DNA of 64,000 nucleotides from Acidobacteriota bacterium. Its GTDB lineage: Bacteria; Acidobacteriota; UBA890; WLXD01. Within the stretch, counting starts at the first letter, position 1. Every line of letters begins with the position of its first letter. The notes beneath the pieces were generated by a model, which did no database searches, was not told the DNA's origin, and saw only the letters and a program-made list of their open reading frames with translations. Below, piece after piece: positions 17,986 to 39,587 of this stretch. Position numbers and translations under genes: made by a program. The stretch covers positions 224,001-288,000 of the forward strand of contig CAXWPL010000002.1 in NCBI GenBank assembly GCA_963666215.2, written 5' to 3'.

Positions 17986-18867
17986 TCAGTTTGAAATTCC
18001 CCGCTTCTTGTAGGGTCCGCGAGGTCCAGGCTTCGGTGCCTTCTCATCGATCAGCTCGACGATCCACTCCATATCGTGCAGCGTGTTGCTAACCCCGGCT
18101 TCCATCGCTGGTGTTACGCGCAGCGTCTTGTGGATTCGGCAGAAGTTGTAGTGCGCGAAGTACAGATCCAGCATGTAGCAGTGGTTCGCGAGCTTCTTGG
18201 AGAATGCGTTGGTCAGCCGTGTGAACCGGCGTATGCTCATGCGCATCGTGAGGTTTTGCCGCTCGACGTAGGACGTACTGATTAGCTCGGGATCGGGGGA
18301 GCCTACCACCGCCAGCCGCCTGGAACCCTGGCATCTTGCAGGACTGTAGCGCCTCTGGGGCTCCGGGTCGGCGCCGTAGATCTTCTGTAGCATGGCGTAG
18401 TCGATCTGGTGCGCGAACGCATCCTCGACCGCCTCCAGGTACATCCGGTGCCCGTCGGTCGTTAGCTGGATGCGGTTGCTCAGCCGACTCGCCAGATCCT
18501 GCATGAACTCGGTAGCCGTGCCCGAATCGCGCGGACCAACACGGAAGCTCGGCACCAGCTTTGTCTCGGCGCAGATCGCCGTGAACGTCCACACATCGCC
18601 ATAGCCGAACTGGCCGCGCTTGTCAGCGGGGACGTTCTTCTGCTTCGAGTAGCAGAACGACCAGATCTCGTCAGCCTCGATCCGCTTGCACGGAAGGTCA
18701 CGCAGCGTCTCGTCCTGGTAGGCGGCGCAAGCTCGCCCAGCATCCACCAGTAGCTTCGAGACGGTGTTAAACGATACGCCGGTGACACGAGCGATTGCCC
18801 GCATCGACATGCCCTCGACGAGCATCGAGAGGATCTGTGCTCGCTTGGCAGTAGGTAGCTTGTTCAT
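17986..18867 (-). CDS. IS1-family DDE transposase (single ORF)
   Basis: N-terminal HTH (LVEGMSMRAIARVTGVSFNTV), IEADEIWSF, LTTDG, STSYVERQNLTMR...RRFTRLTNAFSKK, TPAMEAG; the stop codon lies inside the left TIR. Confidence 0.92.
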   Translation of the reverse strand: MNKLPTAKRAQILSMLVEGMSMRAIARVTGVSFNTVSKLLVDAGRACAAYQDETLRDLPCKRIEADEIWSFCYSKQKNVPADKRGQFGYGDVWTFTAICAETKLVPSFRVGPRDSGTATEFMQDLASRLSNRIQLTTDGHRMYLEAVEDAFAHQIDYAMLQKIYGADPEPQRRYSPARCQGSRRLAVVGSPDPELISTSYVERQNLTMRMSIRRFTRLTNAFSKKLANHCYMLDLYFAHYNFCRIHKTLRVTPAMEAGVSNTLHDMEWIVELIDEKAPKPGPRGPYKKRGISN

Positions 18868-18874
18868 ACACAGA

Positions 18875-18903
18875 AGGATACTGAACTATCCCTCTATTGT
18901 CAA
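18875..18903 (-). promoter_or_regulatory. Near-consensus sigma70 promoter of the transposase (probably leaderless)
   Basis: TTGACA (18903-18898), 17 bp, TATCCT (18880-18875), 7 nt, ATG (18867). Confidence 0.7.
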
Positions 18904-18906
18904 GCA

Positions 18907-19389
18907 TTAGTTCAACTTCCTTCGGGAACTCTGATTAGGCTCTCCGTGTGGCCTGGACAAGTAGCAAATCACCGTACCATAAAGGGGACCAGCTACGGCC
19001 TCAACGGAAGAATGTGTCACGTCTTCGCACTTTCCAAGCTTGCTCGTCCACTCACCGGATTCAAGTTGCAGGGCGGCGTGGGTCGGAGTCTCGTGCCCAA
19101 CTTCACCCTTCCCGAATAGCGCTATTTTTTCTGTTCCTGTCTCAACGCTCCCGTCAGCACAGGGTGTGAAACCCAACGTGCCATATGCACGCAAAAAGGC
19201 TTGCCTCGTTACAGCACGCTCGACGCCTGGGGGCCAGTATCCGACCATCATCGAGTCGGGCCACCAAGCGCGGAAATCCTCACCAGCGGCCCAAGCAATG
19301 CAATTGTACCGCTGCGTCGACGGGCTCGTAATTTCGGTGTTTTCGTCCGTTAGTCCCGGCAGTTCATGTAGAGACCAACTACCAGACAT
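18907..19389 (-). CDS. IS passenger: putative papain-like/Cys-His fold protein (DUF7689-like), 160 aa
   Basis: TSPSTQRYNCIAWAAG, WWP, THAALQ, WTSKLG; ATG 19389 overlaps the upstream gene end by 11 bp. Confidence 0.65.
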   Translation of the reverse strand: MSGSWSLHELPGLTDENTEITSPSTQRYNCIAWAAGEDFRAWWPDSMMVGYWPPGVERAVTRQAFLRAYGTLGFTPCADGSVETGTEKIALFGKGEVGHETPTHAALQLESGEWTSKLGKCEDVTHSSVEAVAGPLYGTVICYLSRPHGEPNQSSRRKLN

Positions 19390-19849
19390 GTCCCTCGTTC
19401 TTGCCCCACTCAAGCCATGCTCGTGCCATGCTCGCGTAGTCGCCGCGATCCGCATCGTTAACGGGATTGACTCTTGTAATCGCGCTAAGAGCCCAAAACC
19501 ATTGGTCTGGTTCGCTACCTTCGTCCCGAAGTTGTTGTAAAAGAAACGGAACAGCTCTCTCGCCCATGCCAATAATTTTCTGATAGGCGGGGCACATAAC
19601 CTCTTCGGTAATCGAAGAGATGGCTCGGCTCTGAGCTTTCCACTCCTGAACCAGGTCTTGGAACCTTAGCCAGGTCTCGGTCAGGGGATTCCCACCAATC
19701 TCAACCATAGAGACTGACTGCCTGGCATTGAACACTGGGGCAACGGTCTCGGAGGAGAATTCTTGCCTTGCCTGATCACCCTGCACGCAAAACAAATCAT
19801 AGGCACCTTGAACAACGGAAATAGATGGTGAAGAAGTAGTTGTGTACAT
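19379..19849 (-). CDS. IS passenger: hypothetical alpha-helical (HEAT-like) protein, 156 aa
   Basis: RFQDLVQEWK...PAYQKIIGMGERAVPFLL...PDQWFWALSAIT..NPV...RG...MARAWLEWG; purine-rich RBS upstream. Confidence 0.7.
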   Translation of the reverse strand: MYTTTSSPSISVVQGAYDLFCVQGDQARQEFSSETVAPVFNARQSVSMVEIGGNPLTETWLRFQDLVQEWKAQSRAISSITEEVMCPAYQKIIGMGERAVPFLLQQLRDEGSEPDQWFWALSAITRVNPVNDADRGDYASMARAWLEWGKNEGHVW

Positions 19850-19875
19850 GTAGAGTAGCTTCTCCCTTACACCTT

Positions 19876-20151
19876 CTAGTGAACTTCTGGAGAATCTGAC
19901 GCGCCCTTCTTGAGGTTCTCCGGTGAGTTCACGTCCACGACGTGACTCATCTTCACCGAGTACATGGGGTTCCCGTCATTGGCGTATCTGCCCACGGCAC
20001 GGAACACGCGAAGAACAATGATCTTTACCCTGAGAATCGACCCATCGTCAAGAACGGCTTCGCTCCAACGCTCTGTGGTCTCCCCGACCGCCACTTCGAC
20101 AGCATCGGACTGATGCTCCCCGAATTGGGCTTTGGTTTTCTTCTCTGTCAA
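19876..20151 (-). CDS. IS passenger: small beta-rich hypothetical protein, 91 aa
   Basis: TTG start after GGAGGG RBS; ERWSEAVLDDGSILRVK...DGNPMYSV...PENLKK; short gaps to both neighbours. Confidence 0.65.
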   Translation of the reverse strand: MTEKKTKAQFGEHQSDAVEVAVGETTERWSEAVLDDGSILRVKIIVLRVFRAVGRYANDGNPMYSVKMSHVVDVNSPENLKKGASDSPEVH

Positions 20152-26982: not shown

Positions 26983-27558
26983 CTACACCGAACACGACGA
27001 GTCGTTTGCCGGCCTGATGCGTTCGTAGCACTCGAAGGTGAAGGCGAAGGCGTGGCTATCGTCGGACTCGTGATGCTCCTGGCAGGTTAGCTTCCAGGCC
27101 GACAGATCGATCGGGGGGAAGGATGTGTCGCCTTGCGGTGCGGCATGTACGCGCGTCAGCGACAGTCGGTCGGCAATGGGCAGCGTCGACTCGTAGACAC
27201 GCGCGCCGCCCACAACGAACAGCTCGGGGTCGTTGGCGGCGAGTTCCAGGACCTGCTGAATCGTTGCCGCGGTCGCCAATGTGGCCACGGTGTCCGCTGA
27301 TCCCACTGCTTCCGCGTCAAGGTTCTGGCGGGCGAGCCAGCTCGGATCGCTGGTCAGTACCAAGGTCCGACGCCCTGGCAGGGGGCGGCCGATCGATTCG
27401 TAGGTCAGCCGCCCCATCAGCAGCGTGTGCCCGAGGGTCAGCGCTTTGAAGCGGCGCAGGTCCTCCGGCAGTCTCCACGGCAACGCGTTATCGCGGCCGA
27501 TCACCCCGTTGTCGGCGATCGCGGCGACCAGCGTCACGCGTGGTCGCCGGCAGCTCAT
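26983..27558 (-). CDS. folA: Dihydrofolate reductase
   Basis: [50 protein letters not shown]; ATG overlaps the thyA stop. Confidence 0.95.
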
Positions 27559-28349
27559 ACCGCCACGGGCGCCTTGATGTGCGGGTGCGGGTCGTAGTCG
27601 CGTAGCCCGATGTCTTCGTAGCGAAAACCGTCCAGCTCGTCCACGTCCGGGGCGAGCCAAAGGCGCGGCAGTTGTCGGGGCTCGCGCGTCAGCTGTTCGG
27701 TGGCCTGTTCGAAGTGGTTGCTGTACAGGTGGGCGTCTCCAAGAGTGAACACGAAGTCGCCCGGCGCGAGCTCGGTGGCTTGCGCCACCATGAGCGTCAG
27801 CAGCGCATACGACGCGATGTTGAACGGCACGCCAAGAAAGATGTCGCCGCTGCGCTGGTACAGCTGGCATGACAGCCGGCCCTCGCGTACGTAGAACTGA
27901 AAGAGCACGTGGCACGGCGGCAACGCCATCTGCTCGATTTGGCCGACGTTCCACGCCGATACGATCAGCCGGCGGGAGTCGGGGTTGTTGCGGATCTCGT
28001 CGACGACCCAGCCAACCTGATCGATGCTGCCACCATCGGCCGTGGGCCAGGAGCGCCACTGATACCCGTAAATCGGCCCCAGGTCGCCATCCGGGCCGGC
28101 CCACTCGTCCCAGATGCGCACTCCGTGCTTCTGCAGGTCGCCGACGTTGCGGCCGCCGTGCAGGAACCAGAGGAGTTCGTGAACAATCGACTTGAAGTGC
28201 AGCTTCTTGGTGGTCAGCAGCGGGAAGCCCTGGGCCAGGTTGAAGCGCAGCTGATGTCCGAACAGGCTTCGTGTCCCGGTCCCCGTTCGGTCGGACTTCA
28301 CCGCGCCCTGTTCGAGGACGGTGCGCATCAAGTCGAGGTAAGGTTGCAT
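27555..28349 (-). CDS. thyA: Thymidylate synthase
   Basis: [47 protein letters not shown]. Confidence 0.98.
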
Positions 28350-28484
28350 CGCTCGCATTGTCGCACGGGCAAGACAGCGTTGCGCCTTGACCTAGCCCGG
28401 ACTAGCGTCGATTCGCCGGTCGCGCCCACCCCACGCAACGCGGTTTCGATCGCGCCCGGCGCGACCCGCGCCGCTGGCTCACGC

Positions 28485-29555
28485 ATGTCGATCGACGTAC
28501 TTTCCGCCAACGCCTCTTCCGACGCGCTCGAAACTCAGGCGTCTCTGGACACCGCCGCGCTCGCCGGTGTGCATGGCTCGTCCGACGCTGACGACCCTAT
28601 GGAATTGGCGATTCAGGCGAAACAGCTGCGCAAGGATTTCGGCGCGTTGGCGGCGGTCGACGGCGTGGACTTCGGTGTTCGTCGTGGTGAGTGCTTCGGC
28701 TTCCTGGGTGTCAACGGAGCCGGCAAGACGACCACGATCAGGATGATCCAGTGTCTCTCGCCGCCCACCTCAGGCGAGCTACGTGTGCTCGGGATGGATG
28801 TGCAAGGTCAGGCCCGCCGTATCAAGTCGCGTCTGGGCGTGGTGCCGCAGCAGGACAACGTCGATCCCGACCTGCGAGTGCGTGAGAATCTGCTCGTTTA
28901 CGCCCGCTACTTCGGCATTCCGCGGAGGAAAGCGCGCGCTCGGGCCGATGAGTTGCTCGAGTTCGTGCAGCTGGACGAGCGCGCTGAATCGCCCGTGACG
29001 TCGCTGTCGGGAGGAATGAAGCGGCGGCTGGTGCTGGCGCGGGCGATGATCAACCGGCCGGAGCTCATGCTGCTCGACGAGCCGACGACGGGTCTCGATC
29101 CCCAAGCCCGTCACCTCGTCTGGAGTCGGCTTCGACGGCTGCGCAGCGCCGGCGTCACAACGCTTCTGACGACGCACTACATGGAGGAAGCTGCGCAACT
29201 GTGCGACCGCGTGGCGATCATTGACGGCGGACGGCTGCTCGCCGTAGGCGAGCCTGAGGCGCTGGTGACCGAGCACGTGGGCCGTGTGTGCATCGAAATC
29301 CGCCCGGCGCCCGGCGGTCGGCAGCAGCTGCACGCCGTGCTTCAAGGGTTGTCCGGACAGAGACAAGAAGTCGGCGACACCGTTTATCTGTACCCGGGCG
29401 AACACGACTCGGAGGCTGACTGGCGAGCCCTGCAAGCGCTGCCGAACCAGCGGCTCGTTCACCGTCCTGCGGCGCTCGAGGATTTGTTTCTGCGGCTAAC
29501 GGGTCGAGATCCCGAGACCTCGGCGTCTCCGCGCCGGGGAGACCTCGATGAGTAG
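28485..29555 (+). CDS. ABC exporter ATP-binding protein (NodI-like; start 28485 or 28599)
   Basis: GVNGAGKTT, LSGGMKRRL, LLDEPTTGLDPQARH, TTHYMEEA. Confidence 0.9.
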   Translation: MSIDVLSANASSDALETQASLDTAALAGVHGSSDADDPMELAIQAKQLRKDFGALAAVDGVDFGVRRGECFGFLGVNGAGKTTTIRMIQCLSPPTSGELRVLGMDVQGQARRIKSRLGVVPQQDNVDPDLRVRENLLVYARYFGIPRRKARARADELLEFVQLDERAESPVTSLSGGMKRRLVLARAMINRPELMLLDEPTTGLDPQARHLVWSRLRRLRSAGVTTLLTTHYMEEAAQLCDRVAIIDGGRLLAVGEPEALVTEHVGRVCIEIRPAPGGRQQLHAVLQGLSGQRQEVGDTVYLYPGEHDSEADWRALQALPNQRLVHRPAALEDLFLRLTGRDPETSASPRRGDLDE

Positions 29556-29605
29556 CGCCGGGAGCCGCCGGTGAGGCGCGATAGGCGCCGCAGGGTGGGC
29601 GAGCG

Positions 29606-30400
29606 ATGAGCGGCGCCGGGTTCGCGTGGCTTGTTGATGGGTTGCCTTCTTATCGCGCCGCTCGCGTCTGGCGGCGCAACGCAACGACCTACCGGCGCGT
29701 CTGGCCCGGCAATCTGCTCGGCCATCTGGCCGATCCGCTCTTCTACCTCGGCGTGCTCGGCTACGGCGTCGGTGCGTTCATGCCCGACGTCGATGGCGTT
29801 CCTTACGTTGTCTTCCTGGTGCCTGGTCTGGTGGCGGCTGCGGGAATGGCGTCGGCTTGTTTCGAAGGCGCGTTCTCGTCGTACTTTCGGCTGCACACAC
29901 AAGGCACGTTCGACGGGATTCTGGCCACGCCGGTCAGCCTGGCCGATCTGGCCGCCGGGGAGACGGTCTGGGCGGCGACCAAGGGGGCCATCAGTGCTCT
30001 GGCGACGCTCGGCGTTGCGGCCGCTTTCGGGCTGGTGCCCACCTGGTGGGGTCTGCTGATCGTGCCTATCGCACTGCTTCAGGGGATCTTTTTCGGGGCG
30101 CTGTCGCTCGCAATCGCCGCGCATATGGAATCGATGGATCACCTGAACCATTTCTACGCACTCTTCATCATGCCGGCGATGTTCGTGTCGGATGTCTTCT
30201 TCCCCATCGAGCGCCTGCCAGCCGCAGTGCAAACACTGGCTCTGGCATCGCCGTTGACCCACGCGGTGCACCTGGCACGTCCGCTCAGTCAGGGAGCGGT
30301 GCCGGCGGATTGGCTCCTCGAGCTGCTGTGGCTGGCGCTCGCGGGAGCAGCCGGGCTGGCGCTGGCGACATGGAGCTTGCGGCGCCGACTGATCGTCTGA
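29606..30400 (+). CDS. ABC-2 type permease (NodJ-like)
   Basis: Six hydrophobic segments; DPLFYL..LGYG, YVVFLVPGL, ILATP, FFPIERLP, PLTHAV. Confidence 0.88.
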   Translation: MSGAGFAWLVDGLPSYRAARVWRRNATTYRRVWPGNLLGHLADPLFYLGVLGYGVGAFMPDVDGVPYVVFLVPGLVAAAGMASACFEGAFSSYFRLHTQGTFDGILATPVSLADLAAGETVWAATKGAISALATLGVAAAFGLVPTWWGLLIVPIALLQGIFFGALSLAIAAHMESMDHLNHFYALFIMPAMFVSDVFFPIERLPAAVQTLALASPLTHAVHLARPLSQGAVPADWLLELLWLALAGAAGLALATWSLRRRLIV

Positions 30401-30478
30401 ACGGCATGAAATTCTCATTCGCACCGCGGACACGGCCCCGTCGGGCCGAAAGTCGTTTCGTGTGGGATAATTCCGCGC

Positions 30479-31447
30479 ATGCTTGACCTCCCGACACATC
30501 CGGACCCTGGTTCTGGCCAAGCTGCTGTTGGGGTGCGCGCACGCAAGCCCGATTGGCTTAGAGTGCGTCCTCCTGGCGGCACGGAGTACACGTTCATCAA
30601 GGGACTCCTCCGCGAGCGGGGCTTGCACACGGTCTGCGAGGAGGCTCGCTGTCCCAACGTCGCCGAGTGCTGGAGTGGTGGAACCGCCACTTTCATGCTG
30701 CTGGGAGACATTTGTACTCGCGGCTGTCGGTTTTGCGCCGTGACCACCGGCAACCCCGGCGGACTTGTGGATCCGGTCGAGCCCAACAAGCTGGCCGACG
30801 CGGTGGCGTTGATGGCACTGCGCTACGTCGTGCTGACGATGGTCGATCGCGATGACCTTGCCGACGGCGGCGCCGCGCACGTCGGTCGAGCCGTGCGTGC
30901 GATCAAGGCACGTGTGCCCCACACGATCGTCGAAGCACTGGTTGGGGACTTCTCCGGGGAGGGCGATCCGATCGATGCGGTCTGCGCTTCCGGGGTTGAG
31001 GTCTTCGCCCATAACATCGAGACCGTGGAGCGCCTGCAGCGGACGGCGCGTGATCAGCGCTGCGGCTATCAGCAGTCGCTCGATGTGCTCGAGCACGCCA
31101 AGCGCCACGTCAGCCTGCCGTACACCAAGTCGTCGCTCATGCTCGGCCTGGGCGAACAGGACGATGAGGTGGTGCGGACGATGCGCGATCTTCGTGATGT
31201 CGGCGTCGACTTTCTGACGCTCGGTCAGTATCTGCAGCCCACGCCTCGACATCTCGCCGTGGAGCAGTACGTCACCCCGGAACGTTTCGACGCGCTGCGG
31301 CGAGTCGGCGAGAAGCTGGGCTTCCTGTACGTTGCCGCCGGCCCGCTGGTGCGCAGCTCCTACAAGGCTGCCGAATTCTTCATCGAGAGCCTGATTCGCG
31401 ATTCCAATTCAGACCTCACGGCCGGCATACAGTCGGCGCGCGCTTGA
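30479..31447 (+). CDS. lipA: Lipoyl synthase
   Basis: CEEARCPNVAEC, CTRGCRFC, GQYLQP, VRSSY. Confidence 0.98.
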   Translation: MLDLPTHPDPGSGQAAVGVRARKPDWLRVRPPGGTEYTFIKGLLRERGLHTVCEEARCPNVAECWSGGTATFMLLGDICTRGCRFCAVTTGNPGGLVDPVEPNKLADAVALMALRYVVLTMVDRDDLADGGAAHVGRAVRAIKARVPHTIVEALVGDFSGEGDPIDAVCASGVEVFAHNIETVERLQRTARDQRCGYQQSLDVLEHAKRHVSLPYTKSSLMLGLGEQDDEVVRTMRDLRDVGVDFLTLGQYLQPTPRHLAVEQYVTPERFDALRRVGEKLGFLYVAAGPLVRSSYKAAEFFIESLIRDSNSDLTAGIQSARA

Positions 31448-31457
31448 AGCAGGGACG

Positions 31458-32549
31458 ATGGGCGAAGACCGCACACTGACAAGCGACGGTCCAATCGATG
31501 AAGGTGGCGAACGCGCCGATCTTGATGCCCCCGAGGCTTCAGGCGAAGCCGCAAACGAAGTGGACGACGACCACTCGGTGGACACCGCTCCGGTGGAGCT
31601 CGGTGATCTGGAGCCGTTGATCCGCCTGTTCGAGACGCTCGCCGTCGCCGAGCGCGTCGACAACGAGTGTCAGCGCTTGCAGACCTCCGGCGTGCTGTCT
31701 TTCTACGTTCCGGGCGGCGCCCAGAACGCGGTTTCTGCCGCCGTGGGGTGCACTCTCGAGGAGGGCGACTGGGCCTACCCTTCCTACCGTGACCTGGCCA
31801 TGTACTTGGCGCGTGGTGGCGCGCCTCGAGCTCTGTTCGACCAGTTGCTCGCCAACGGTCGCGACCCGGCGGCTGGCCGGCAACTGCCGGGTCGTTTTTC
31901 GCTTCCCGGCGGTCGGTATGTTTCCGTATCCGGCGCGCTGGGAACCCAGATTCCGCAGGCCGTTGGCACGGGTATCGCGATGCAGCTGCGAGGCGATCAC
32001 AGCGTGACACTGGTGTCGTTCGGCGCCGCAGCGGTGGCCCAGTCGGGGTTTCATCAGGGCATGGAGTTGGCGGCGCGTTTTCGCCCGCCGGTCATCATGA
32101 TCTGTTCCGTCGCCGCGCGGGCCGGGCTTCAAGGGAGCCTCGAAGGCCGCGCTGGCGGCTACGGAGTTGCTTCGCGCACCGTCGATGGCGGCGATCCGGT
32201 GGCGATGCTCGAAGCCTGCGGCGAGGCGCGCCAAACGGTACGCGACAGTGGCGCCATGTTGCTGATTGCCGAGCTGCCAGACCCCGCCTTGTCTGCGGCG
32301 AAGAACAACGGTGGGCTCGCCGCGCGTCGGGCCGTGGAGACGCAGCTTGAAGAGCTGGTCGCTGGCGGTCCACGGGCGCCTCTTCTGTCCGAGCGCCTCG
32401 CGGCCATTCTGTCGACCGCGACCGACACCGTGCGAGAAGCGTCGGCTTCGGCGGCCGAGTCGGCGCCGCCAGCCGCCAGCAGAGCTCTCGAAGACATCTA
32501 CGGCGAACCGTCATGGATGCAGCAGGAGCAATCCGAATGGCTAGCCTGA
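31458..32549 (+). CDS. 2-oxoacid dehydrogenase E1 alpha-like subunit, ThDP motif degenerate
   Basis: Recognisable E1a scaffold (PSYRD, GRQLP, TQIPQAVG, VDGGDP), but GDG is replaced by GAA, the NN loop is missing and the HS..DD loop is missing. Confidence 0.8.
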   Translation: MGEDRTLTSDGPIDEGGERADLDAPEASGEAANEVDDDHSVDTAPVELGDLEPLIRLFETLAVAERVDNECQRLQTSGVLSFYVPGGAQNAVSAAVGCTLEEGDWAYPSYRDLAMYLARGGAPRALFDQLLANGRDPAAGRQLPGRFSLPGGRYVSVSGALGTQIPQAVGTGIAMQLRGDHSVTLVSFGAAAVAQSGFHQGMELAARFRPPVIMICSVAARAGLQGSLEGRAGGYGVASRTVDGGDPVAMLEACGEARQTVRDSGAMLLIAELPDPALSAAKNNGGLAARRAVETQLEELVAGGPRAPLLSERLAAILSTATDTVREASASAAESAPPAASRALEDIYGEPSWMQQEQSEWLA

Positions 32550-33514
32550 ACCTGGTGGAGGCGGTCAACTACGCGCTCGGCGCAGAGATGGAGAGTAATC
32601 CGCTCGTGGTGCTGCTGGGCGAAGAAGTCAGCGAGTCCGGAGGCTTGCACGGCGCGGCCGAGGGGTTACTCGACCGCTTTGGCGGCGAACGCGTTCTCGA
32701 GGTTCCGTTCGCCGAAGGCGGCCTGCTTGGCGCCGCTGCCGGAATGGCGATGTACGGCCTACGGCCGGTGGCCGAGCTGCCGTTCGCCGAATGCCTCTTT
32801 CCCGGGCTCGAGCAGCTGTCTGTCGAGATCGCCCGCCTACGCTTCCGTTCGGGAGGCGAGTACACCTGCCCCCTCGTGGTCCGCGTGCCCTACGGCGCAG
32901 GCATCGGTGGCGGCCTCGATCAGTTCGAGAGCCCCGAAGCCTACCTTACCCACAGCCCGGGACTGGTTGTTGTGGCCCCGTCGAACGCATACGACGCTGT
33001 TGGCCTGCTGCGCAGCGCGCTACGCGGCGACGATCCGGTGGCCTTCCTCGAGCCCCGTCGGCTCTACAGGCACGAGTCGATGGAGATTCCCGAGACGGAT
33101 TACGAGGTCCCGATCGGCGAAGCCAAGGTGCTTCGTGAGTGTGACGAGGGCGTGTCGTTGATCACCTACGGAGGCATGGTGCCGGTGTCGCTCGATGCTG
33201 CCGAGCTTGCCGCCGAAGCGGGCCACGAAGTCGAGGTGGTCGAGCTGCGAACACTGCTTCCTTTCGATATCGGCACCGTGCTCGCCTCGGTCGTCAAGAC
33301 TGGACGAGCGCTCGTTGTGACCGAGTCGCGCAAGCACGGTGGCTTCGGTGCCGAGCTGGTCGCGACGCTTGCCGAGCGCGCTTTGCTGCACCTGGAGGCG
33401 CCGGTCGAACGCGTCGCCGGCCTCGATGCTCCCATTCCCTATGCACGAGAGGAGCTCTACGTGCCCGACTCGAGCCGTGTCCTAGCGGCGATCGAGCGGC
33501 TCGTTAGCTTCTGA
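32537..33514 (+). CDS. 2-oxoacid dehydrogenase E1 beta-like subunit, catalytic His absent
   Basis: LGEEV..GG, GLRPVAE, VRVPYG, PGLVVVAPS..YDA.GLL, ELRTLLPFD; YHSQ is replaced by DQFE. Confidence 0.85.
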   Translation: MASLNLVEAVNYALGAEMESNPLVVLLGEEVSESGGLHGAAEGLLDRFGGERVLEVPFAEGGLLGAAAGMAMYGLRPVAELPFAECLFPGLEQLSVEIARLRFRSGGEYTCPLVVRVPYGAGIGGGLDQFESPEAYLTHSPGLVVVAPSNAYDAVGLLRSALRGDDPVAFLEPRRLYRHESMEIPETDYEVPIGEAKVLRECDEGVSLITYGGMVPVSLDAAELAAEAGHEVEVVELRTLLPFDIGTVLASVVKTGRALVVTESRKHGGFGAELVATLAERALLHLEAPVERVAGLDAPIPYAREELYVPDSSRVLAAIERLVSF

Positions 33515-33525
33515 GAGCAGTGCCT

Positions 33526-35385
33526 ATGACCACCGAGTTCAAGCTGCCCGAGATCGGCGAGGGAATTGCCGAGGGCGAGATCGTCAAGTGGATGGTCGCG
33601 GAGGGCGACGTTGTTGCCGAGGACGATCCGCTGGTCGAGGTCATGACGGACAAGGCAACGGTTGAGATCCCGTCGCCACGGGCCGGCACGATCGTCAAGC
33701 TCGCGGCCCGGGAAGGTGAGGTTGTCGACGTTGGTACCGTGATCCTCGTGTTCGGCGATGAAGGTGACGAAGTCGGCAGCGAAGCTCAGGACGATTCGCA
33801 GCAGCTGGACGATTCGCCAGAGATGGATGCCGAGGGCTCCGGCGACGACGCTGCAATCGAGACAGCGGCTGAGGAGGTCGACAAGTCGCCGGCCAACGCC
33901 GACAGCTCGTCGAGCGGCTTCGATTGGGGACCCGGCGGCGACGCCAAGAAGAAGGTGAACGAAGAGGCGGCTACATCAATCCGCACGGACGCAACCGACA
34001 GCGTTGAGGACGCCCGCGCCGCCGCGCGAGCCGAGCTCGAAGCTGCAGAGGAGGTGCCGGTGGCTAGGCTGAACGGACACTCAGGAGCGGCTGTCAAGCC
34101 GTGGGAAATCGCCACCTTGTCGACGCCCGGCAATGGCGGATCCGGCCGACTCCTGGCGAGCCCGGCGACGCGTCGTCTGGCGCGAGAGGTTGGCGTGGAT
34201 CTCAGAGAGCTGATCGGCACGGAGCCGGACGGGCGCATTCGGAAAGAGGACGTCGAGGCGTTCGCCGCTACGCGCACCGCCATCATGCAGGGCGGGGCCA
34301 CGGTCTCCGCCACCCTGGCTGAGTCGGGTCCGGTGTCGTCGTCCGCCGCGGCCGATCCTGGCGCCGTAGTCGATGTGTCCGCCGCATCGGAGGCTTCAAC
34401 TCCAGCTTCTGCTCCGCCCGTCGTTCCTCCGCCGATCCCGACAGCCGCTTCGGCGCCCGCTCCAGCTGCCGACGCTGCCACATCAGACACCGAGCCGGAA
34501 GAGGAAGAAGAGCTCTCGTGGCGCCCGGTCGCCGAGCGGCCCGACCCGCCATCGGTCGCGCCCATCGCGAACACGGCCGAGGGAGTGAGAAACGACGAGG
34601 AACGCATCCCGTTCCGTGGACTGCGCCGGCGGATTGCCGAGCGCATGGTGCACTCCAAGACGGTCGTGCCGCACTTCACGTACGTTGAGGAACGCATCCC
34701 GTTCCGTGGACTGCGCCGGCGGATTGCCGAGCGCATGGTGCACTCCAAGACGGTCGTGCCGCACTTCACGTACGTTGAAGAGGCCGACATGTCGGAGGTG
34801 ATCGCGCTGCGACAGCAGGCCAAGCTGCTGGGCGCCGAAGAGGGCGTACGAGTGACGTACCTGCCGTTCATCATCCGCGCGCTCGTCACTGCCCTGCGTC
34901 AACATCCGATCGTCAACTCCACCCTCGACGAGGAGGCCGGCGAGATCGTGGTCAAACGCCACTTCAACGTCGGCATCGCGACCGCTACCGCTCGCGGCCT
35001 GATCGTGCCCGTCGTCAAGCACGCGGAGCGCTTGGGCGTGTTCGAGCTGGCGCGCGAGATCCAGCGCCTCGCCGAAAGTGCGCGAGATGGACGCAGCTCG
35101 ATCGAAGATCTTCAGGAGGGCACGATCACGATCACCAGTACCGGTAACATTGGCGGTGTGCTCGCGACGCCGATCGTCAACCACCCGGAAGTTGCGATCA
35201 TCGGAGTGACGGCGATTCGTAAGCGCGCAGTGGTGGTCGACGATGAGATCGTCGTGCGGCCGATGCTCAACCTTTCGATGTCGCTCGATCACCGCGTCGT
35301 CGACGGGGCTGACGGCGCGCTCTTCATGCGCGACCTGATTCGCTACCTCGAGGACCCGAGGCTCCAGCTGCTCGGTTCTTTGTGA
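33526..35385 (+). CDS. Dihydrolipoamide acyltransferase (E2)
   Basis: Single lipoyl domain (EVMTDKAT), peripheral subunit-binding domain (ASPATRRLARE...GRIRKEDV), catalytic DHRVVDG. Confidence 0.95.
   Translation: MTTEFKLPEIGEGIAEGEIVKWMVAEGDVVAEDDPLVEVMTDKATVEIPSPRAGTIVKLAAREGEVVDVGTVILVFGDEGDEVGSEAQDDSQQLDDSPEMDAEGSGDDAAIETAAEEVDKSPANADSSSSGFDWGPGGDAKKKVNEEAATSIRTDATDSVEDARAAARAELEAAEEVPVARLNGHSGAAVKPWEIATLSTPGNGGSGRLLASPATRRLAREVGVDLRELIGTEPDGRIRKEDVEAFAATRTAIMQGGATVSATLAESGPVSSSAAADPGAVVDVSAASEASTPASAPPVVPPPIPTAASAPAPAADAATSDTEPEEEEELSWRPVAERPDPPSVAPIANTAEGVRNDEERIPFRGLRRRIAERMVHSKTVVPHFTYVEERIPFRGLRRRIAERMVHSKTVVPHFTYVEEADMSEVIALRQQAKLLGAEEGVRVTYLPFIIRALVTALRQHPIVNSTLDEEAGEIVVKRHFNVGIATATARGLIVPVVKHAERLGVFELAREIQRLAESARDGRSSIEDLQEGTITITSTGNIGGVLATPIVNHPEVAIIGVTAIRKRAVVVDDEIVVRPMLNLSMSLDHRVVDGADGALFMRDLIRYLEDPRLQLLGSL
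34597..34778 (+). repeat. Exact 90-bp in-frame tandem duplication within E2
   Basis: 34597-34686 is identical to 34687-34776 (plus GA microhomology); EERIPFRGLRRRIAERMVHSKTVVPHFTYV appears twice. Confidence 0.97.
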
Positions 35386-35395
35386 CCTAGCTGCG

Positions 35396-36832
35396 ATGTC
35401 CGAAGACCTCCACGTCGACCTCGCCGTCATCGGCGCTGGGCCTGGCGGCTACGTCGCGGCCCTTCGCGCCGCGCAGCTCGGCCTCAAGACGGTGGTGATC
35501 GAGAAGGAGTTCGTTGGCGGTACCTGTCTGAACATCGGCTGTATCCCGTCGAAGGCACTCCTCGACGCCACCCATCTGCTGACGCAGATCCGCAACGCGT
35601 CGGCGTTCGGAATCCGGGTGGAGGGGATCGAGGTCGACTACCCGGCGATGCGCCAGCACAAGGCGAAAGTCGTCAAGATGTTGACCGGAGGTGTGCGCAG
35701 CCTGCTCCGCAAAGCCGGGGTTACCCTGATTGAGGGTGAGGGAAGCTTCGCTGGCCCGGGCGTGCTGCAGGTCGATCGCGCGGTCTCTGCTGCCACGAGC
35801 TCGGAGTCGAAGGGCGGGGCCGGCGGTCGCGTGGTCGTTCGGGCCGGCAGCATCATCATCGCCTCCGGGTCGGGCGAGGCTCAGCTGCCCGGGGTGCCGC
35901 TCGACGGAGAGCTCGTGATCTCCTCACGCGGCGCTCTCGATCTCGAAGAGGTGCCGCAGCGCATGGTGGTCGTGGGCGGTGGCTACATCGGCCTCGAGAT
36001 GAGCAGCGTGTATTCGCGCCTGGGCACCGACGTCGTCGTGCTCGAGATGCTCGATCGCCTGTTGCCTGAGATGGACCAAGAAGTCGCCGAGACCGCCGAG
36101 AAGCTCATGCGCGAGCAGGGCCTCGACATCCGCTTGAACGCGCGCGTCTCGGGCGTCACTGGCCGCGCGGGCGACGCGGAGGTCGCGTTCGAGACCACGG
36201 AAGAGCGGCAGACGGTTGCTACCGATATTGTCCTTGTGGCGATCGGGCGCCGCCCGCTGACCGCGGGGCTCGGCCTCGATGCAATTGATCTCGAGCCTGA
36301 CCCGCGTGGCTACATCACCGTCGACCACGGTATGCGGACCGGCGTGCCGGGGGTCTACGCGGTCGGCGATGTCGTACCGACGCCGATGCTCGCTCACGTG
36401 GCGATGGATGAGGGTGTTGTAGCGGCCGAGTGCGCAGCCGGTCGCGATGCGGCCATGGAGTATCGCGCGATCCCCGCGGTGGTGTTCACTTCGCCGGAGC
36501 TCGCCTCGGTCGGCCTCAAAGAGGAGGAGGCACTTGCGCGGGGCCGCAAGCTGCGGGTGGGTCGATTCCCGTTCCGTGGCAACGCTAGGGCGCGCGCCCG
36601 CAACGATGTCGAGGGTTGGGTGAAGATCATCGCCGACGCCGAAACCGACGAGCTGTTGGGCGCTCATTGTGTGGGCCCGGAAGCAGGTCATCTCATCCAC
36701 GAGGCCGTCGTAGCGATGGGTTACAGCGGCTATTCCGAAGACCTGGCGCTCACGGTGCACGCCCATCCGACGCTCTCCGAGGCCTTCAAGGAGGCGGCGC
36801 TTGCGGTTGACGGCCGGTCGCTGCATATCTAG
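35396..36832 (+). CDS. lpdA: Dihydrolipoyl dehydrogenase (E3)
   Basis: GAGPGGY, GGTCLNIGCIPSK, GGGYIGLE, HAHPTLSE. Confidence 0.97.
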   Translation: MSEDLHVDLAVIGAGPGGYVAALRAAQLGLKTVVIEKEFVGGTCLNIGCIPSKALLDATHLLTQIRNASAFGIRVEGIEVDYPAMRQHKAKVVKMLTGGVRSLLRKAGVTLIEGEGSFAGPGVLQVDRAVSAATSSESKGGAGGRVVVRAGSIIIASGSGEAQLPGVPLDGELVISSRGALDLEEVPQRMVVVGGGYIGLEMSSVYSRLGTDVVVLEMLDRLLPEMDQEVAETAEKLMREQGLDIRLNARVSGVTGRAGDAEVAFETTEERQTVATDIVLVAIGRRPLTAGLGLDAIDLEPDPRGYITVDHGMRTGVPGVYAVGDVVPTPMLAHVAMDEGVVAAECAAGRDAAMEYRAIPAVVFTSPELASVGLKEEEALARGRKLRVGRFPFRGNARARARNDVEGWVKIIADAETDELLGAHCVGPEAGHLIHEAVVAMGYSGYSEDLALTVHAHPTLSEAFKEAALAVDGRSLHI

Positions 36833-36947
36833 CACCGCCGTGGCGCGCTCCGACGTCTCGACCCACCCAGCAGGATCGGGCTGTGGTGTTGTGGTGATCG
36901 CCGAGCCAGACGACCGCGTGAGCGGCGTCGGGGGCAACGCCTAGCTG

Positions 36948-39587
36948 ATGTCTTCGAGTGAGGGCTCGCTCTTCGGCGAGTCGCTTCGTGGCACGGTGGC
37001 GCGTGTCGTTTACGAGAATGCCGATAATCGCTGGGCGGTGCTGCGACTCGACACCGAGGAGGGCTTACGCGTCTCGGCCGTAGGAACTCTGGCGCCCGTA
37101 TTCGAGGGGGATGCGCTCGAGCTTCGCGGTGAGTGGGAGTGGGACAAACGCTACGGCCGTCAGTTTCGTGCTAGCTCCTCGCGTGCCGCGGAGCCACTCG
37201 GCGAGGTAGGTGTTCGACGCTATCTGTCCTCGGGGCGTATTCCGGGCATCGGAGCCGAGCTGGCGCGCCGACTGGTCGACGCGTTTGGCGGAGACACGCT
37301 ACGGATTCTCGACGAGGAACCGGCCAGGTTGCTGACCGTGCGTGGCATCGGCCCAAAACGCCTGGCCGATATCGAAGAGGCTTGGCAGGAGCACGCCGCC
37401 GATCGGCGGGCGCGAATCGGGCTGCACGACCTCGGGCTGGGAAACGCCCTGACCGAGCGCGTTCTCGACGCCTGGGGCGGTGAGGCGCTGACAAAGGTCC
37501 GTGCGAATCCGTACGGGCTGATTGCCGATGTGCGCGGGGTGGGCTTTCGCATTGCCGATTCCCTGGCACTCGGGCTCGGTTGGCACACCACCTCGGCTCC
37601 GCGTCTGCGCGCCGGACTGCGGCACGTGTTGCAGGAAGCCACCAACGAGGGGCACTGCTACCTGCCTCTGAGCCAGCTGTCGGATCGTGCCTCGCGGTTG
37701 CTCGGGCTGACAGGTATCGAGGTGCCGCCGTTCGACACGGATGATCCTGCCGGGGGACCGGCTTCGGCGAGCGGGCTGCTCGGCCAGAGCATCGATCGTA
37801 TGGCGGGAACGGGGGAGATCGTGGTCGAGCGTGCTCGATCGCGCGGTTCCCGTGCTGGCTCTCGCGGTGCAGGCGGTGCCGAGCTCGACTTCGGCGCAGA
37901 TGAAGGCTCGGTGACCGATCTACGGGATTCTCGCGCACAGGGTGGCGAGTCGGTACAGAACGAGGCCGAGCTGTCTGAGGAGTTTTCCGCAGCGGCGGAA
38001 GAGCCGCCCGCCTGGTTTGATGACATTCCCGCCTCAGAAGAGGACCAGAGACGCGTCTTCCTGTCGCATTTGTACGGTGCCGAACAACGCATCGCGCGCC
38101 GGTTGGCGCTGCTCGCGAGCGCTGCAGCGCAAAGCAGCACGGCGGAAGCCTCGCTCGACGGGATCCTGCGCCACGTCGAGTCGAAGTTGCGGGCACGCGG
38201 GCAGATCGAGCTCGGCTCGCAGCAGCGCCGGGCGGTGGAGCGCACGTTGAACGAACGACTACTTGTGGTCACGGGTGGTCCGGGAACCGGGAAGACGACC
38301 ATCGTCAACACGATCGTGCAAGCGTTTCAGCTACTCGAGCAACGGCCGACGTTGGCGGCTCCCACCGGTCGCGCCGCAAAACGGCTTGAAGAGGCGACCG
38401 GTCAGCCAGCCAAGACCTTGCATCGTCTTCTCGAGTTCCAGTTCGACACGGGCTTTGGCCGCGGTCCGGAGCGGCCGCTCGAGGCAGACCTCGTGATTGT
38501 CGACGAGGCCTCGATGATCGACCTGACGCTGATGGACGCGCTTGTGGGTGCGCTACCTCTCGGCTGCGGACTCCTGTTGGTGGGTGACTCCGATCAACTG
38601 CCGTCGGTGGGCCCGGGAGCGGTGCTCCGCGACCTTATCGGGTCGGGAGCGGTGCCGACGGTTCGTCTTACCGAGATCTACCGGCAGGCGAAGCGCAGCT
38701 TGATCGTCCGCAACGCGCATCGGATCAACACCGGTCAGATGCCGGTGCGCGAAGTGACGGCGCTCGACGAGGAGTTGTCGGGCGCAGACGACCTCATCGA
38801 GGTCGGTCTTGACACGGGCGTGGGGCTCACGACGCCGGGAGGCCCTCCGACACCCGACTTCTATTACATCGAAGAGCGAGATTCGGACCGTTCTCGCGAG
38901 CTCGCGGTGAGGCTGGTGAGGGAGCGCATGCCGAAGCGCTTCGGCCTCGACCCTGTTCGCGATATCCAGGTCATGGCCCCGATGCATCGTGGTCGGTGCG
39001 GCGTTGAGCGGCTCAATGTCGAGCTCCAGGCAGCGCTCAATGTGCGGTCGGGTGCGCTGATCGAGAGTCCTACCCTCAGCGGGATCAGCGGGATCAGCGC
39101 GGTCGCCGGGAGCACCGGGACGAGCGGCGACAGCGTGGCCGCGCCACGCCGGGCCACGCTCTGCATTGGCGACCGCGTCATGCAGCTGCGCAATGACTAT
39201 GATCGCGAGGTCTTCAACGGCGACATCGGCTGGGTGGTTGCGGTCGACGACGAGCTCGGCGTCAGTGTCGACTTCGCTGGTCGTATCGTGGGCTACGATC
39301 GCAAGGAGCTCGGCGACCTCACGCTGGCCTACGCCATCACCATCCACAAGAGCCAGGGCAGCGAGTACGACGCAGTGGTCGCGTTGCTGCTTCCGGAGCA
39401 CCACATCATGCTGCAGCGGAATCTGCTCTACACCGCGCTCACGCGAGGCAGAAACCTGGTGGTGCTCATCAGTACCGATGGGGCGCTGCGTCGCGCGATC
39501 GGCAACAATGCACCGTCGGCGCGGTACTCGGCGCTTGCCGAGCGCCTGAGCGCGGCGTTCGGCGGCGTGTTCGAGGGCGCTTCGTAG
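36948..39587 (+). CDS. recD2: ATP-dependent RecD2-like DNA helicase
   Basis: N-terminal OB/HhH region, TGGPGTGKTT, APTGRAA, DEASM, GDSDQLPSVG, AYAITIHKSQGSE, LYTALTRG. Confidence 0.92.
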   Translation: MSSSEGSLFGESLRGTVARVVYENADNRWAVLRLDTEEGLRVSAVGTLAPVFEGDALELRGEWEWDKRYGRQFRASSSRAAEPLGEVGVRRYLSSGRIPGIGAELARRLVDAFGGDTLRILDEEPARLLTVRGIGPKRLADIEEAWQEHAADRRARIGLHDLGLGNALTERVLDAWGGEALTKVRANPYGLIADVRGVGFRIADSLALGLGWHTTSAPRLRAGLRHVLQEATNEGHCYLPLSQLSDRASRLLGLTGIEVPPFDTDDPAGGPASASGLLGQSIDRMAGTGEIVVERARSRGSRAGSRGAGGAELDFGADEGSVTDLRDSRAQGGESVQNEAELSEEFSAAAEEPPAWFDDIPASEEDQRRVFLSHLYGAEQRIARRLALLASAAAQSSTAEASLDGILRHVESKLRARGQIELGSQQRRAVERTLNERLLVVTGGPGTGKTTIVNTIVQAFQLLEQRPTLAAPTGRAAKRLEEATGQPAKTLHRLLEFQFDTGFGRGPERPLEADLVIVDEASMIDLTLMDALVGALPLGCGLLLVGDSDQLPSVGPGAVLRDLIGSGAVPTVRLTEIYRQAKRSLIVRNAHRINTGQMPVREVTALDEELSGADDLIEVGLDTGVGLTTPGGPPTPDFYYIEERDSDRSRELAVRLVRERMPKRFGLDPVRDIQVMAPMHRGRCGVERLNVELQAALNVRSGALIESPTLSGISGISAVAGSTGTSGDSVAAPRRATLCIGDRVMQLRNDYDREVFNGDIGWVVAVDDELGVSVDFAGRIVGYDRKELGDLTLAYAITIHKSQGSEYDAVVALLLPEHHIMLQRNLLYTALTRGRNLVVLISTDGALRRAIGNNAPSARYSALAERLSAAFGGVFEGAS

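Follow-up and report, generated by a model that had tools for sequence, protein, structure and literature searches.

In a 64,000-nucleotide stretch of genomic DNA from a marine member of the Acidobacteriota (hereafter the window; G000:C2:224001-288000), both E1 subunits of a 2-oxoacid dehydrogenase operon were found to have lost residues that serve cofactor binding and catalysis, and this state proved to be ancient, order-wide and under purifying selection. The source genome, G000, comprises 4.65 Mb in 5 contigs and is 91.7% complete. The operon lies on the plus strand at 30479–36832 and, according to the open reading frame (ORF) list of the window, consists of five closely packed genes in the order lipA–E1α–E1β–E2–E3. 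In the textbook view of 2-oxoacid dehydrogenase complexes, the entry enzyme is invariably E1, which depends on thiamine diphosphate (ThDP). Here the two E1 subunits are referred to as E1α* and E1β*, and together as α*β*. The explanation that we favour, with somewhat more belief than doubt, is that α*β* is a selection-maintained dead E1 of branched-chain 2-oxoacid dehydrogenase (BCKDH)-type α2β2 descent, which docks on E2 while catalysis comes from fused E1s.

Cofactor and catalytic positions of the E1 pair

E1α* (363 aa; 31458..32549, plus strand) was classified as a BCKDH-type E1 alpha-like pseudoenzyme subunit on the basis of Pfam E1_dh, TIGR03181, an AF2 model and Foldseek. Its score to E1_dh (PF00676) was 98.4 bits against a cut-off of 22, with profile positions 8-213 of 300 alone being covered, and it fell below the equivalog cut-off of the NCBIfam model TIGR03181 (121.9 versus 411.35), to which the genome's canonical α on contig C4 scored 365.8. 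The AF2 model, built on the ortholog profile A1, had a pLDDT of 77 and a pTM of 0.75. Foldseek searches with this model returned the human and Thermus BCKDH E1α chains as top matches (TM about 0.69), and the matches to E1α chains of BCKDH and pyruvate dehydrogenase (PDH) had a probability of 1.00 and TM of 0.63-0.70, indicating that the E1α fold is kept.

E1α* was then aligned to the solved BCKDH E1α chains of Pseudomonas putida and human and to canonical relatives. These alignments bore out the α motif losses listed in a first-pass annotation of the window. At the place of the GDG/GEG Mg-ThDP motif stands FGAAAVAQSGFH (residues 188-199; 32019..32054, plus strand), which reads FG-A-A where the family has G(D/E)G and puts Ala190 at the position of the acidic ligand D173α of Geobacillus stearothermophilus PDH E1 (E1p). 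The inner loop C(Q/R)NNxxAIS is replaced by CSVAARAG (residues 216-223; 32103..32126, plus strand); it has been shortened by a deletion and retains neither the Mg-ligand Asn (N202α) nor I206α. GRQLPGRF occupies the place of GRQ(L/M)PxH, and the YRxxxHSxxDD active-site loop is missing, and with it the equivalent of the catalytic His H271α. The Geobacillus E1p numbering was transferred through the PDH-type α of G000 itself (GDG Asp = D173α, second Asn = N202α, loop His = H271α). According to excerpts of PMC2663715, Mg2+ is coordinated by D173α and N202α, and H271α and H128β take part in reductive acetylation/acylation, which agrees with the roles that the first-pass annotation had given to the missing residues. 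A compensated frameshift was considered for the divergent C-terminal part of E1α* (residues 264-330) and rejected, the other two frames being devoid of the DPxxRLRxYLE-like segment of the orthologs.

E1β* (E1 beta-like, 333 aa from the first ATG; 32513..33514, plus strand) is overall far better conserved than E1α*. It scored 331.9 bits to the Thermus chain 1um9_B and has both transketolase-like domains (Transket_pyr, PF02779, 109.1 bits; Transketolase_C, PF02780, 110.7 bits), and its score to NF006667 was below the cut-off (246.6 versus 321). The probable start is Met9 at 32537, because homology to solved β chains begins there; the overlap with the α gene is therefore given as a range of 13-37 nt, the value being set by the β start chosen. 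Both E1 ORFs are full-length and overlap each other, with coordinates as first described. Two replacements in E1β*, likewise borne out by the alignments, are ELPFAEC for EIQFADF (residues 88-94; 32774..32794, plus strand) and GGLDQFES for GGHYHSQS (residues 133-140; 32909..32932, plus strand). The former puts Cys94 at the position of F85β, a mapping that assumes an offset of 9 from the 1w85_B alignment row; the excerpts of PMC2663715 describe F85β as stacking on the ThDP pyrimidine ring. In the latter, Gln137 (32921-32923) occupies the position of the catalytic His H128β, which is conserved in all known E1s according to the same excerpts. The cofactor-activating Glu (E59β) is retained as Glu68 of E1β* and is invariant in the β alignment A2.

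Judged from these sequences, the E1 pair is very probably incapable of ThDP chemistry; it would neither decarboxylate 2-oxoacids nor acylate lipoate. That the pair is still an enzyme, either binding ThDP or another cofactor in an unusual manner or providing β* to a canonical α made elsewhere, appears most improbable to us. One relative in the order (G021) carries a pseudo-α1 and a canonical second α (α2) in the same operon with the β His kept, so mixed assemblies are conceivable in some relatives, and the excerpts of PMC2663715 report that an H128Q mutant retains decarboxylation in the DCPIP (2,6-dichlorophenolindophenol) assay. However, the same mutant has <5% complex activity, a removal of >95% (same excerpts), and E1α* has kept neither of the Mg ligands, nor the inner loop or the His loop. 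Moreover, G000 is without an α2, and its sole other split α has its own β and E2. The ThDP-independent lipoyl-relay chemistry that the first-pass annotation had raised as a possibility found no support in these results.

Distribution and selection across the order

In a search of 41 related genomes, α orthologs were present in 10/10 genomes of the window's family (f1) and in 11 of the 15 genomes of its sister family (f2). With the ortholog profile A1, matches at E ≤ 1e-30 were obtained in 22 of the order's 26 genomes; the remaining four, all members of genus g9, have a completeness of 55-88%. Among the 19 α ortholog loci (L011-L029), 18 had lost both the Asn and the His loop, and 12 of those 18 were without the acidic ligand too, the sole canonical α among the 19 being that of L020 (G014). 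Full-length ORFs were found at all 19 loci for α and at 18 for β. At the β His position, Gln is present in 10/10 f1 sequences, window included, while His is kept in 9/9 aligned f2 sequences and in the β of L012, which was read separately.

The β of L012 was omitted from the β alignment, an in-frame stop splitting it, and that of L042 was omitted from A2 because of a stop. In L012 (G020), the single in-frame stop lies between ...VVAAP and TPADAV..., and the β match of L042 (G039) also contains a stop. Each of these stops may reflect either an error in sequencing or a genuine break.

In a maximum-likelihood α tree, the 18 motif-less orthologs and the window formed one clade (19 rows, SH-aLRT 98), and the canonical α of G014 was its sister on a short branch (0.13). 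A single α loss is therefore the most economical reading. The first-pass annotation had spoken of a concerted loss in the two subunits; instead, the loss was stepwise, with the α motifs lost first, in a single event at the root of the order's pseudo-clade, and the β His lost later, in family f1 only. The window lineage added further changes after the α and β losses. The canonical α2 lies between E2 and E3 in G014 (L030), G021 (L031) and G030 (L041), and a profile search of the order genomes did not find α2 in family f1. We also observed the layout lipA-α1-β-E2-α2-E3, with two α paralogues and one β, in many genomes of the phylum (tandem matches in G048, G063, G078, G168 and G376).

In a phylum sample of 401 genomes, 57 had a match at E ≤ 1e-85; G071 is counted among them, and none of our claims depends on it. 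The order's 20 α1 matches scored 389-497 bits; the best match outside the order scored 338, and the 10 best α matches outside the order were all canonical. When a library of 1.84 billion representatives was searched with A1, 17,926 proteins were returned at E ≤ 0.001. Among the best 150 of these, 62 were without all three α motifs, 65 had all three and 23 were partial; the phenomenon may therefore be widespread. A further profile (A3), made from 53 of the motif-less clusters that lie beyond the order, returned 46 proteins, nearly all of them unnamed metagenome proteins. The genome_contigs search returned 80 α loci, 16 of which were classified (L044-L059): five were motif-less, all from Acidobacteriota metagenome-assembled genomes (L044-L048), and the δ-proteobacterial, Planctomycetota and Streptomyces loci among the 16 were canonical. 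A search for close relatives of the window among 313 candidate stretches of metagenome_contigs yielded one distant match (L124), a truncated one lacking the motif columns.

To describe the selection on the E1 pair, dN/dS was calculated by the Nei-Gojobori method (NG86) for six pairs in genus g3, a sister genus of the window's lineage; the window's own lineage is represented by strain-level counts only. In g3, the ratios were 0.07-0.12 for α and 0.08-0.11 for β, and those of the neighbouring genes were 0.08-0.09 for lipA, 0.05-0.13 for the catalytic part of E2 and 0.08-0.13 for E3. At the strain level, cluster members showed 3-4 differences in 363 aa of α, 2 in 322 aa of lipA and 1-4 in 478 aa of E3. 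The X10 contig comes from a strain differing by 0.4%; its synonymous/nonsynonymous differences from the window were 2/2 in α, 0 in β, 1/2 in lipA, 3/5 in E2 and 2/4 in E3, with no stops and no indels except for a repeat in E2. These strain counts are too small for a test, yet there is no excess damage in the E1 genes.

Ongoing decay would make the E1 genes dispensable relics, their ORFs being kept for now or for translational coupling of E2 and E3, and we regard this as unlikely to a considerable degree. It would fit several properties of the window: no branch in the α tree is longer than that of its α, which also scores lowest with the profile of its own family (389 versus 442-497 bits), and its β carries changes absent from relatives (ELPFAEC, LDQFES). 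The stop in the G020 β would fit as well. Against this, the ORFs remain full-length across the order as counted above, the dN/dS values of g3 are the same as those of functional neighbours, the near-identical X10 strain has an unchanged β and an α without indels, and coupling by itself would leave the amino-acid sequence unconstrained. The first-pass annotation had named intact motifs in close orthologs, together with dN/dS near 1 on this branch, as the mark of simple decay; 18 of 19 orthologs share the losses, and dN/dS in g3 is not near 1. Its statement that the ORFs show no decay also held, given the order-wide state, the g3 ratios and strain variants free of stops and indels. We conclude that E1α* and E1β* have been retained rather than left to drift, and the core proposal of that annotation, a retained non-catalytic role, is supported by this conservation and selection.

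Active E1s elsewhere and predicted docking on E2

Canonical E1s elsewhere in the genome, which the first-pass annotation had suggested looking for, were found in the form of a PDH-type αβ–E2 operon and two fused αβ genes. PF00676 has four matches in G000: the window α, the PDH-type split α on C4, which has its own β and E2, and two orphan fused αβ genes (C4:834263-836539 and C5:729018-731483, both on the minus strand; 758 and 821 aa) located far from any E2. Alignment showed that both fused E1s retain GDG..NN, the His loop and the β His. Two E2 genes in all are present in G000. A fused E1 of the C4 type was detected in 24 of the 26 order genomes, with 62-72% identity, but not in G022 (83% complete) or in G014 (90% complete), the genome with the sole canonical operon α; the C5-type occurs in 14 of the 26. 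PF00198 matched nothing but the operon E2 in G011, G012 and G013 (completeness 95-96%), and PF00676 matched just the pseudo-α and ORFs of fused size there. Provided that the operon E2 is functional, which its conservation suggests, no suppliers other than the fused E1s would be visible for it in these three genomes. We propose that the acyl groups for the operon E2 are supplied by orphan fused αβ E1s encoded elsewhere, in which case the operon's own E1 catalysis would be dispensable.

The docking of the pair was modelled with two β chains and E2 residues 200-260, where its peripheral subunit-binding domain (PSBD) lies. The predicted complex scored 0.67, versus 0.00 for the best of 3 controls; among solved complexes 58 of 80 reach this score, and among mismatched pairs 2 of 110 do. 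The runs shared 93% or more of their contacts, and the partner had a pLDDT of at least 76. The modelled PSBD contacts β residues 261-264 and 291-296 in both copies, several of them invariant in the alignment A2. The model puts the PSBD across the two β C-terminal domains, a site that we take to be the one in the G. stearothermophilus E1p–E2 PSBD structure (1W85, 3DUF); Geobacillus E1p, in contrast, is active, and the binding of α*β* is a modelled one. α*β* may dock on E2 and take up a place in the E2/E3 complex with a structural or regulatory function, where it would compete with, or organise, E3 and the active E1.

A more specific proposal, which we offer tentatively and consider unlikely to be correct in full, is that α*β* acts as an adaptor or gate resembling the E3-binding protein (E3BP), made from a dead E1 on the E2 PSBD. 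It would recruit the fused E1s, or tune the number of PSBD sites open to E3 and the active E1, and it may respond to a ligand in the remnant pocket formed by the YR motif, GRQxP and β Glu68/Gln137. Alternatively, α*β* might be a neofunctionalised protein with a role other than E2 docking, such as a small-molecule sensor with a remnant half-pocket or a lipoyl-domain-binding helper for LipA-dependent lipoylation, a possibility that we consider rather doubtful. The conservation of the substrate/thiazolium and pyrimidine side in the pseudo-clade speaks for such a role, the YR-motif Arg and GRQ being invariant in 20/20, the β Glu at E59β being present in every sequence and the H128β position being fixed as Gln throughout f1. 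A further point is the constant neighbourhood of lipA, which was directly upstream of E1α, in the gene order lipA-α-β-E2-E3, at 11/11 order loci fetched. However, canonical E1s show the same conservation of the YR, GRQ and Glu motifs, which may have a structural function, the lipA adjacency is ancestral because it is seen with a canonical α in G028 too, and the window has lost more of the pocket (C94; LDQFES).

Several observations weigh against the reading that we favour, a selected dead E1 docked on E2 with fused E1s providing catalysis. α is the fastest-evolving gene of the operon, with a tree length of 6.16 for 10 taxa versus 1.73-3.29 for the others (β 3.15, lipA 3.29, E2 1.73 and E3 2.56, same taxa). 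The terminal branch of the window α, the longest in the α tree, measures 1.59 against a median of 0.28; normalised to the lipA branch it is 3.6×, a value between those of two sister genera (2.9× and 4.9×). Constraint in the window lineage may therefore be weaker than in g3. The loss of ThDP binding is read from sequence, and E1α* residues 140-159 were modelled at pLDDT <50. The score of the two β chains with the PSBD may reflect memorisation by the model, since a like complex (1W85) has been solved, and it shows likeness, not binding. In the β-like part of the fused E1s, the loop corresponding to the modelled PSBD contact is different, and the fused E1 motifs were checked in G000 alone. The f2 genomes without a second α keep the β His, which the model leaves unexplained. 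Finally, RNA support for α consists of one 233-nt contig, possibly DNA carry-over. This contig, from the metatranscriptome run X20, lies inside α, and a 251-nt contig from the same run lies at the E2/E3 junction; both show 0 differences.

Neighbouring genes and relation to known complexes

The other products of the operon are intact, as the first-pass annotation had stated: LipA and E3 pass their NCBIfam cut-offs, and the motifs of LipA, E2 and E3 are all present. The gene for the lipoyl synthase, lipA (30479..31447, plus strand), scored 389.8 bits to TIGR00510 against a cut-off of 310.25, and both Cys clusters are present. It is separated from α by 10 nt; the spacing is 5 nt between β and E2 and 10 nt between E2 and E3. 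The E2 dihydrolipoamide acyltransferase (621 aa; 33520..35385, plus strand) has lipoyl, PSBD and catalytic domains (Pfam Biotin_lipoyl 80, E3_binding 52.9 and 2-oxoacid_dh 303.2 bits), with the lipoyl Lys45, the PSBD at residues 212-246 and DHRVVDG at residues 590-596. The E3 dihydrolipoyl dehydrogenase (478 aa; 35396..36832, plus strand) scored 537.2 against an NCBIfam cut-off of 408.8 and keeps CLNIGC and HPTLSE. It is the sole G000 protein above the TIGR01350 cut-off, two other E3-like genes scoring 356.5 and 262. The separate PDH-type E1-E2 operon on C4 contains no E3 and is probably served by this E3 too.

Within the E2 gene, a perfect in-frame 90-bp tandem duplication (34597..34776, plus strand; two copies of a 30-aa unit, 90/90 bases identical) lies at the N-terminal edge of the catalytic domain. 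The X10 contig carries one copy, and run X6 contains a full-depth junction contig (34659-34716) across the repeat; therefore, the repeat is a real, recent strain polymorphism rather than an assembly artefact.

A promoter/terminator scan of 29500-37500 gave 0 promoter-like and 2 terminator-like signals, versus 4.0 of the latter expected from shuffles, and thus internal signals are unsupported. Rfam matches numbered 0 across the entire window. Upstream of the operon, thymidylate synthase-like and dihydrofolate reductase-like ORFs (26983-28358, minus strand) and an ABC transporter ATPase/permease pair (27909-30400, plus strand) were recognised from their translations alone. The G+C content is 0.565 at window positions 18001-20000 and 0.62-0.70 in the rest of the window.

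Among known systems, α*β* is alike in descent, in fold and in its position upstream of E2/E3 to the heterotetrameric BCKDH-type E1s (Thermus thermophilus 1UM9, human 1DTW/1OLS, P. putida 1QS0). The overlapping α/β genes, the β Glu (E59β) and the C-terminal domain are conserved between them. In contrast to these enzymes, E1α* has neither Mg-ThDP ligands nor an inner loop or His loop, the catalytic His is replaced by Gln in E1β*, and both subunits score below the NCBIfam cut-offs. E3BP, or protein X, of the eukaryotic pyruvate dehydrogenase complex is a non-catalytic E2 paralogue kept as a structural subunit. The two cases are alike in principle, a paralogue of a catalytic component losing catalysis and staying inside the same complex; they differ in that E3BP derives from E2 and has a demonstrated binding role, whereas α*β* derives from E1 and its role is a proposed one. 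Full-text literature searches, with supplementary files outside their scope, yielded no paper describing an E1 that is dead or non-catalytic.

Proteins of this kind are named "pyruvate/2-oxoisovalerate dehydrogenase E1 alpha" in the sources, and metabolic reconstructions of these marine Acidobacteriota will therefore ascribe E1 activity to the operon in error. If our explanation is true, α*β* would be a counterpart of E3BP and the first non-catalytic subunit to have arisen from E1, and the case would show how a complex is rewired once a fused E1 takes over catalysis. Should the adaptor or gate proposal also be true, α*β* would represent a new kind of regulatory subunit of 2-oxoacid dehydrogenases, present in a whole order of marine Acidobacteriota and, to judge by the 62 motif-less clusters among the best 150 profile matches, in many uncultured lineages as well.

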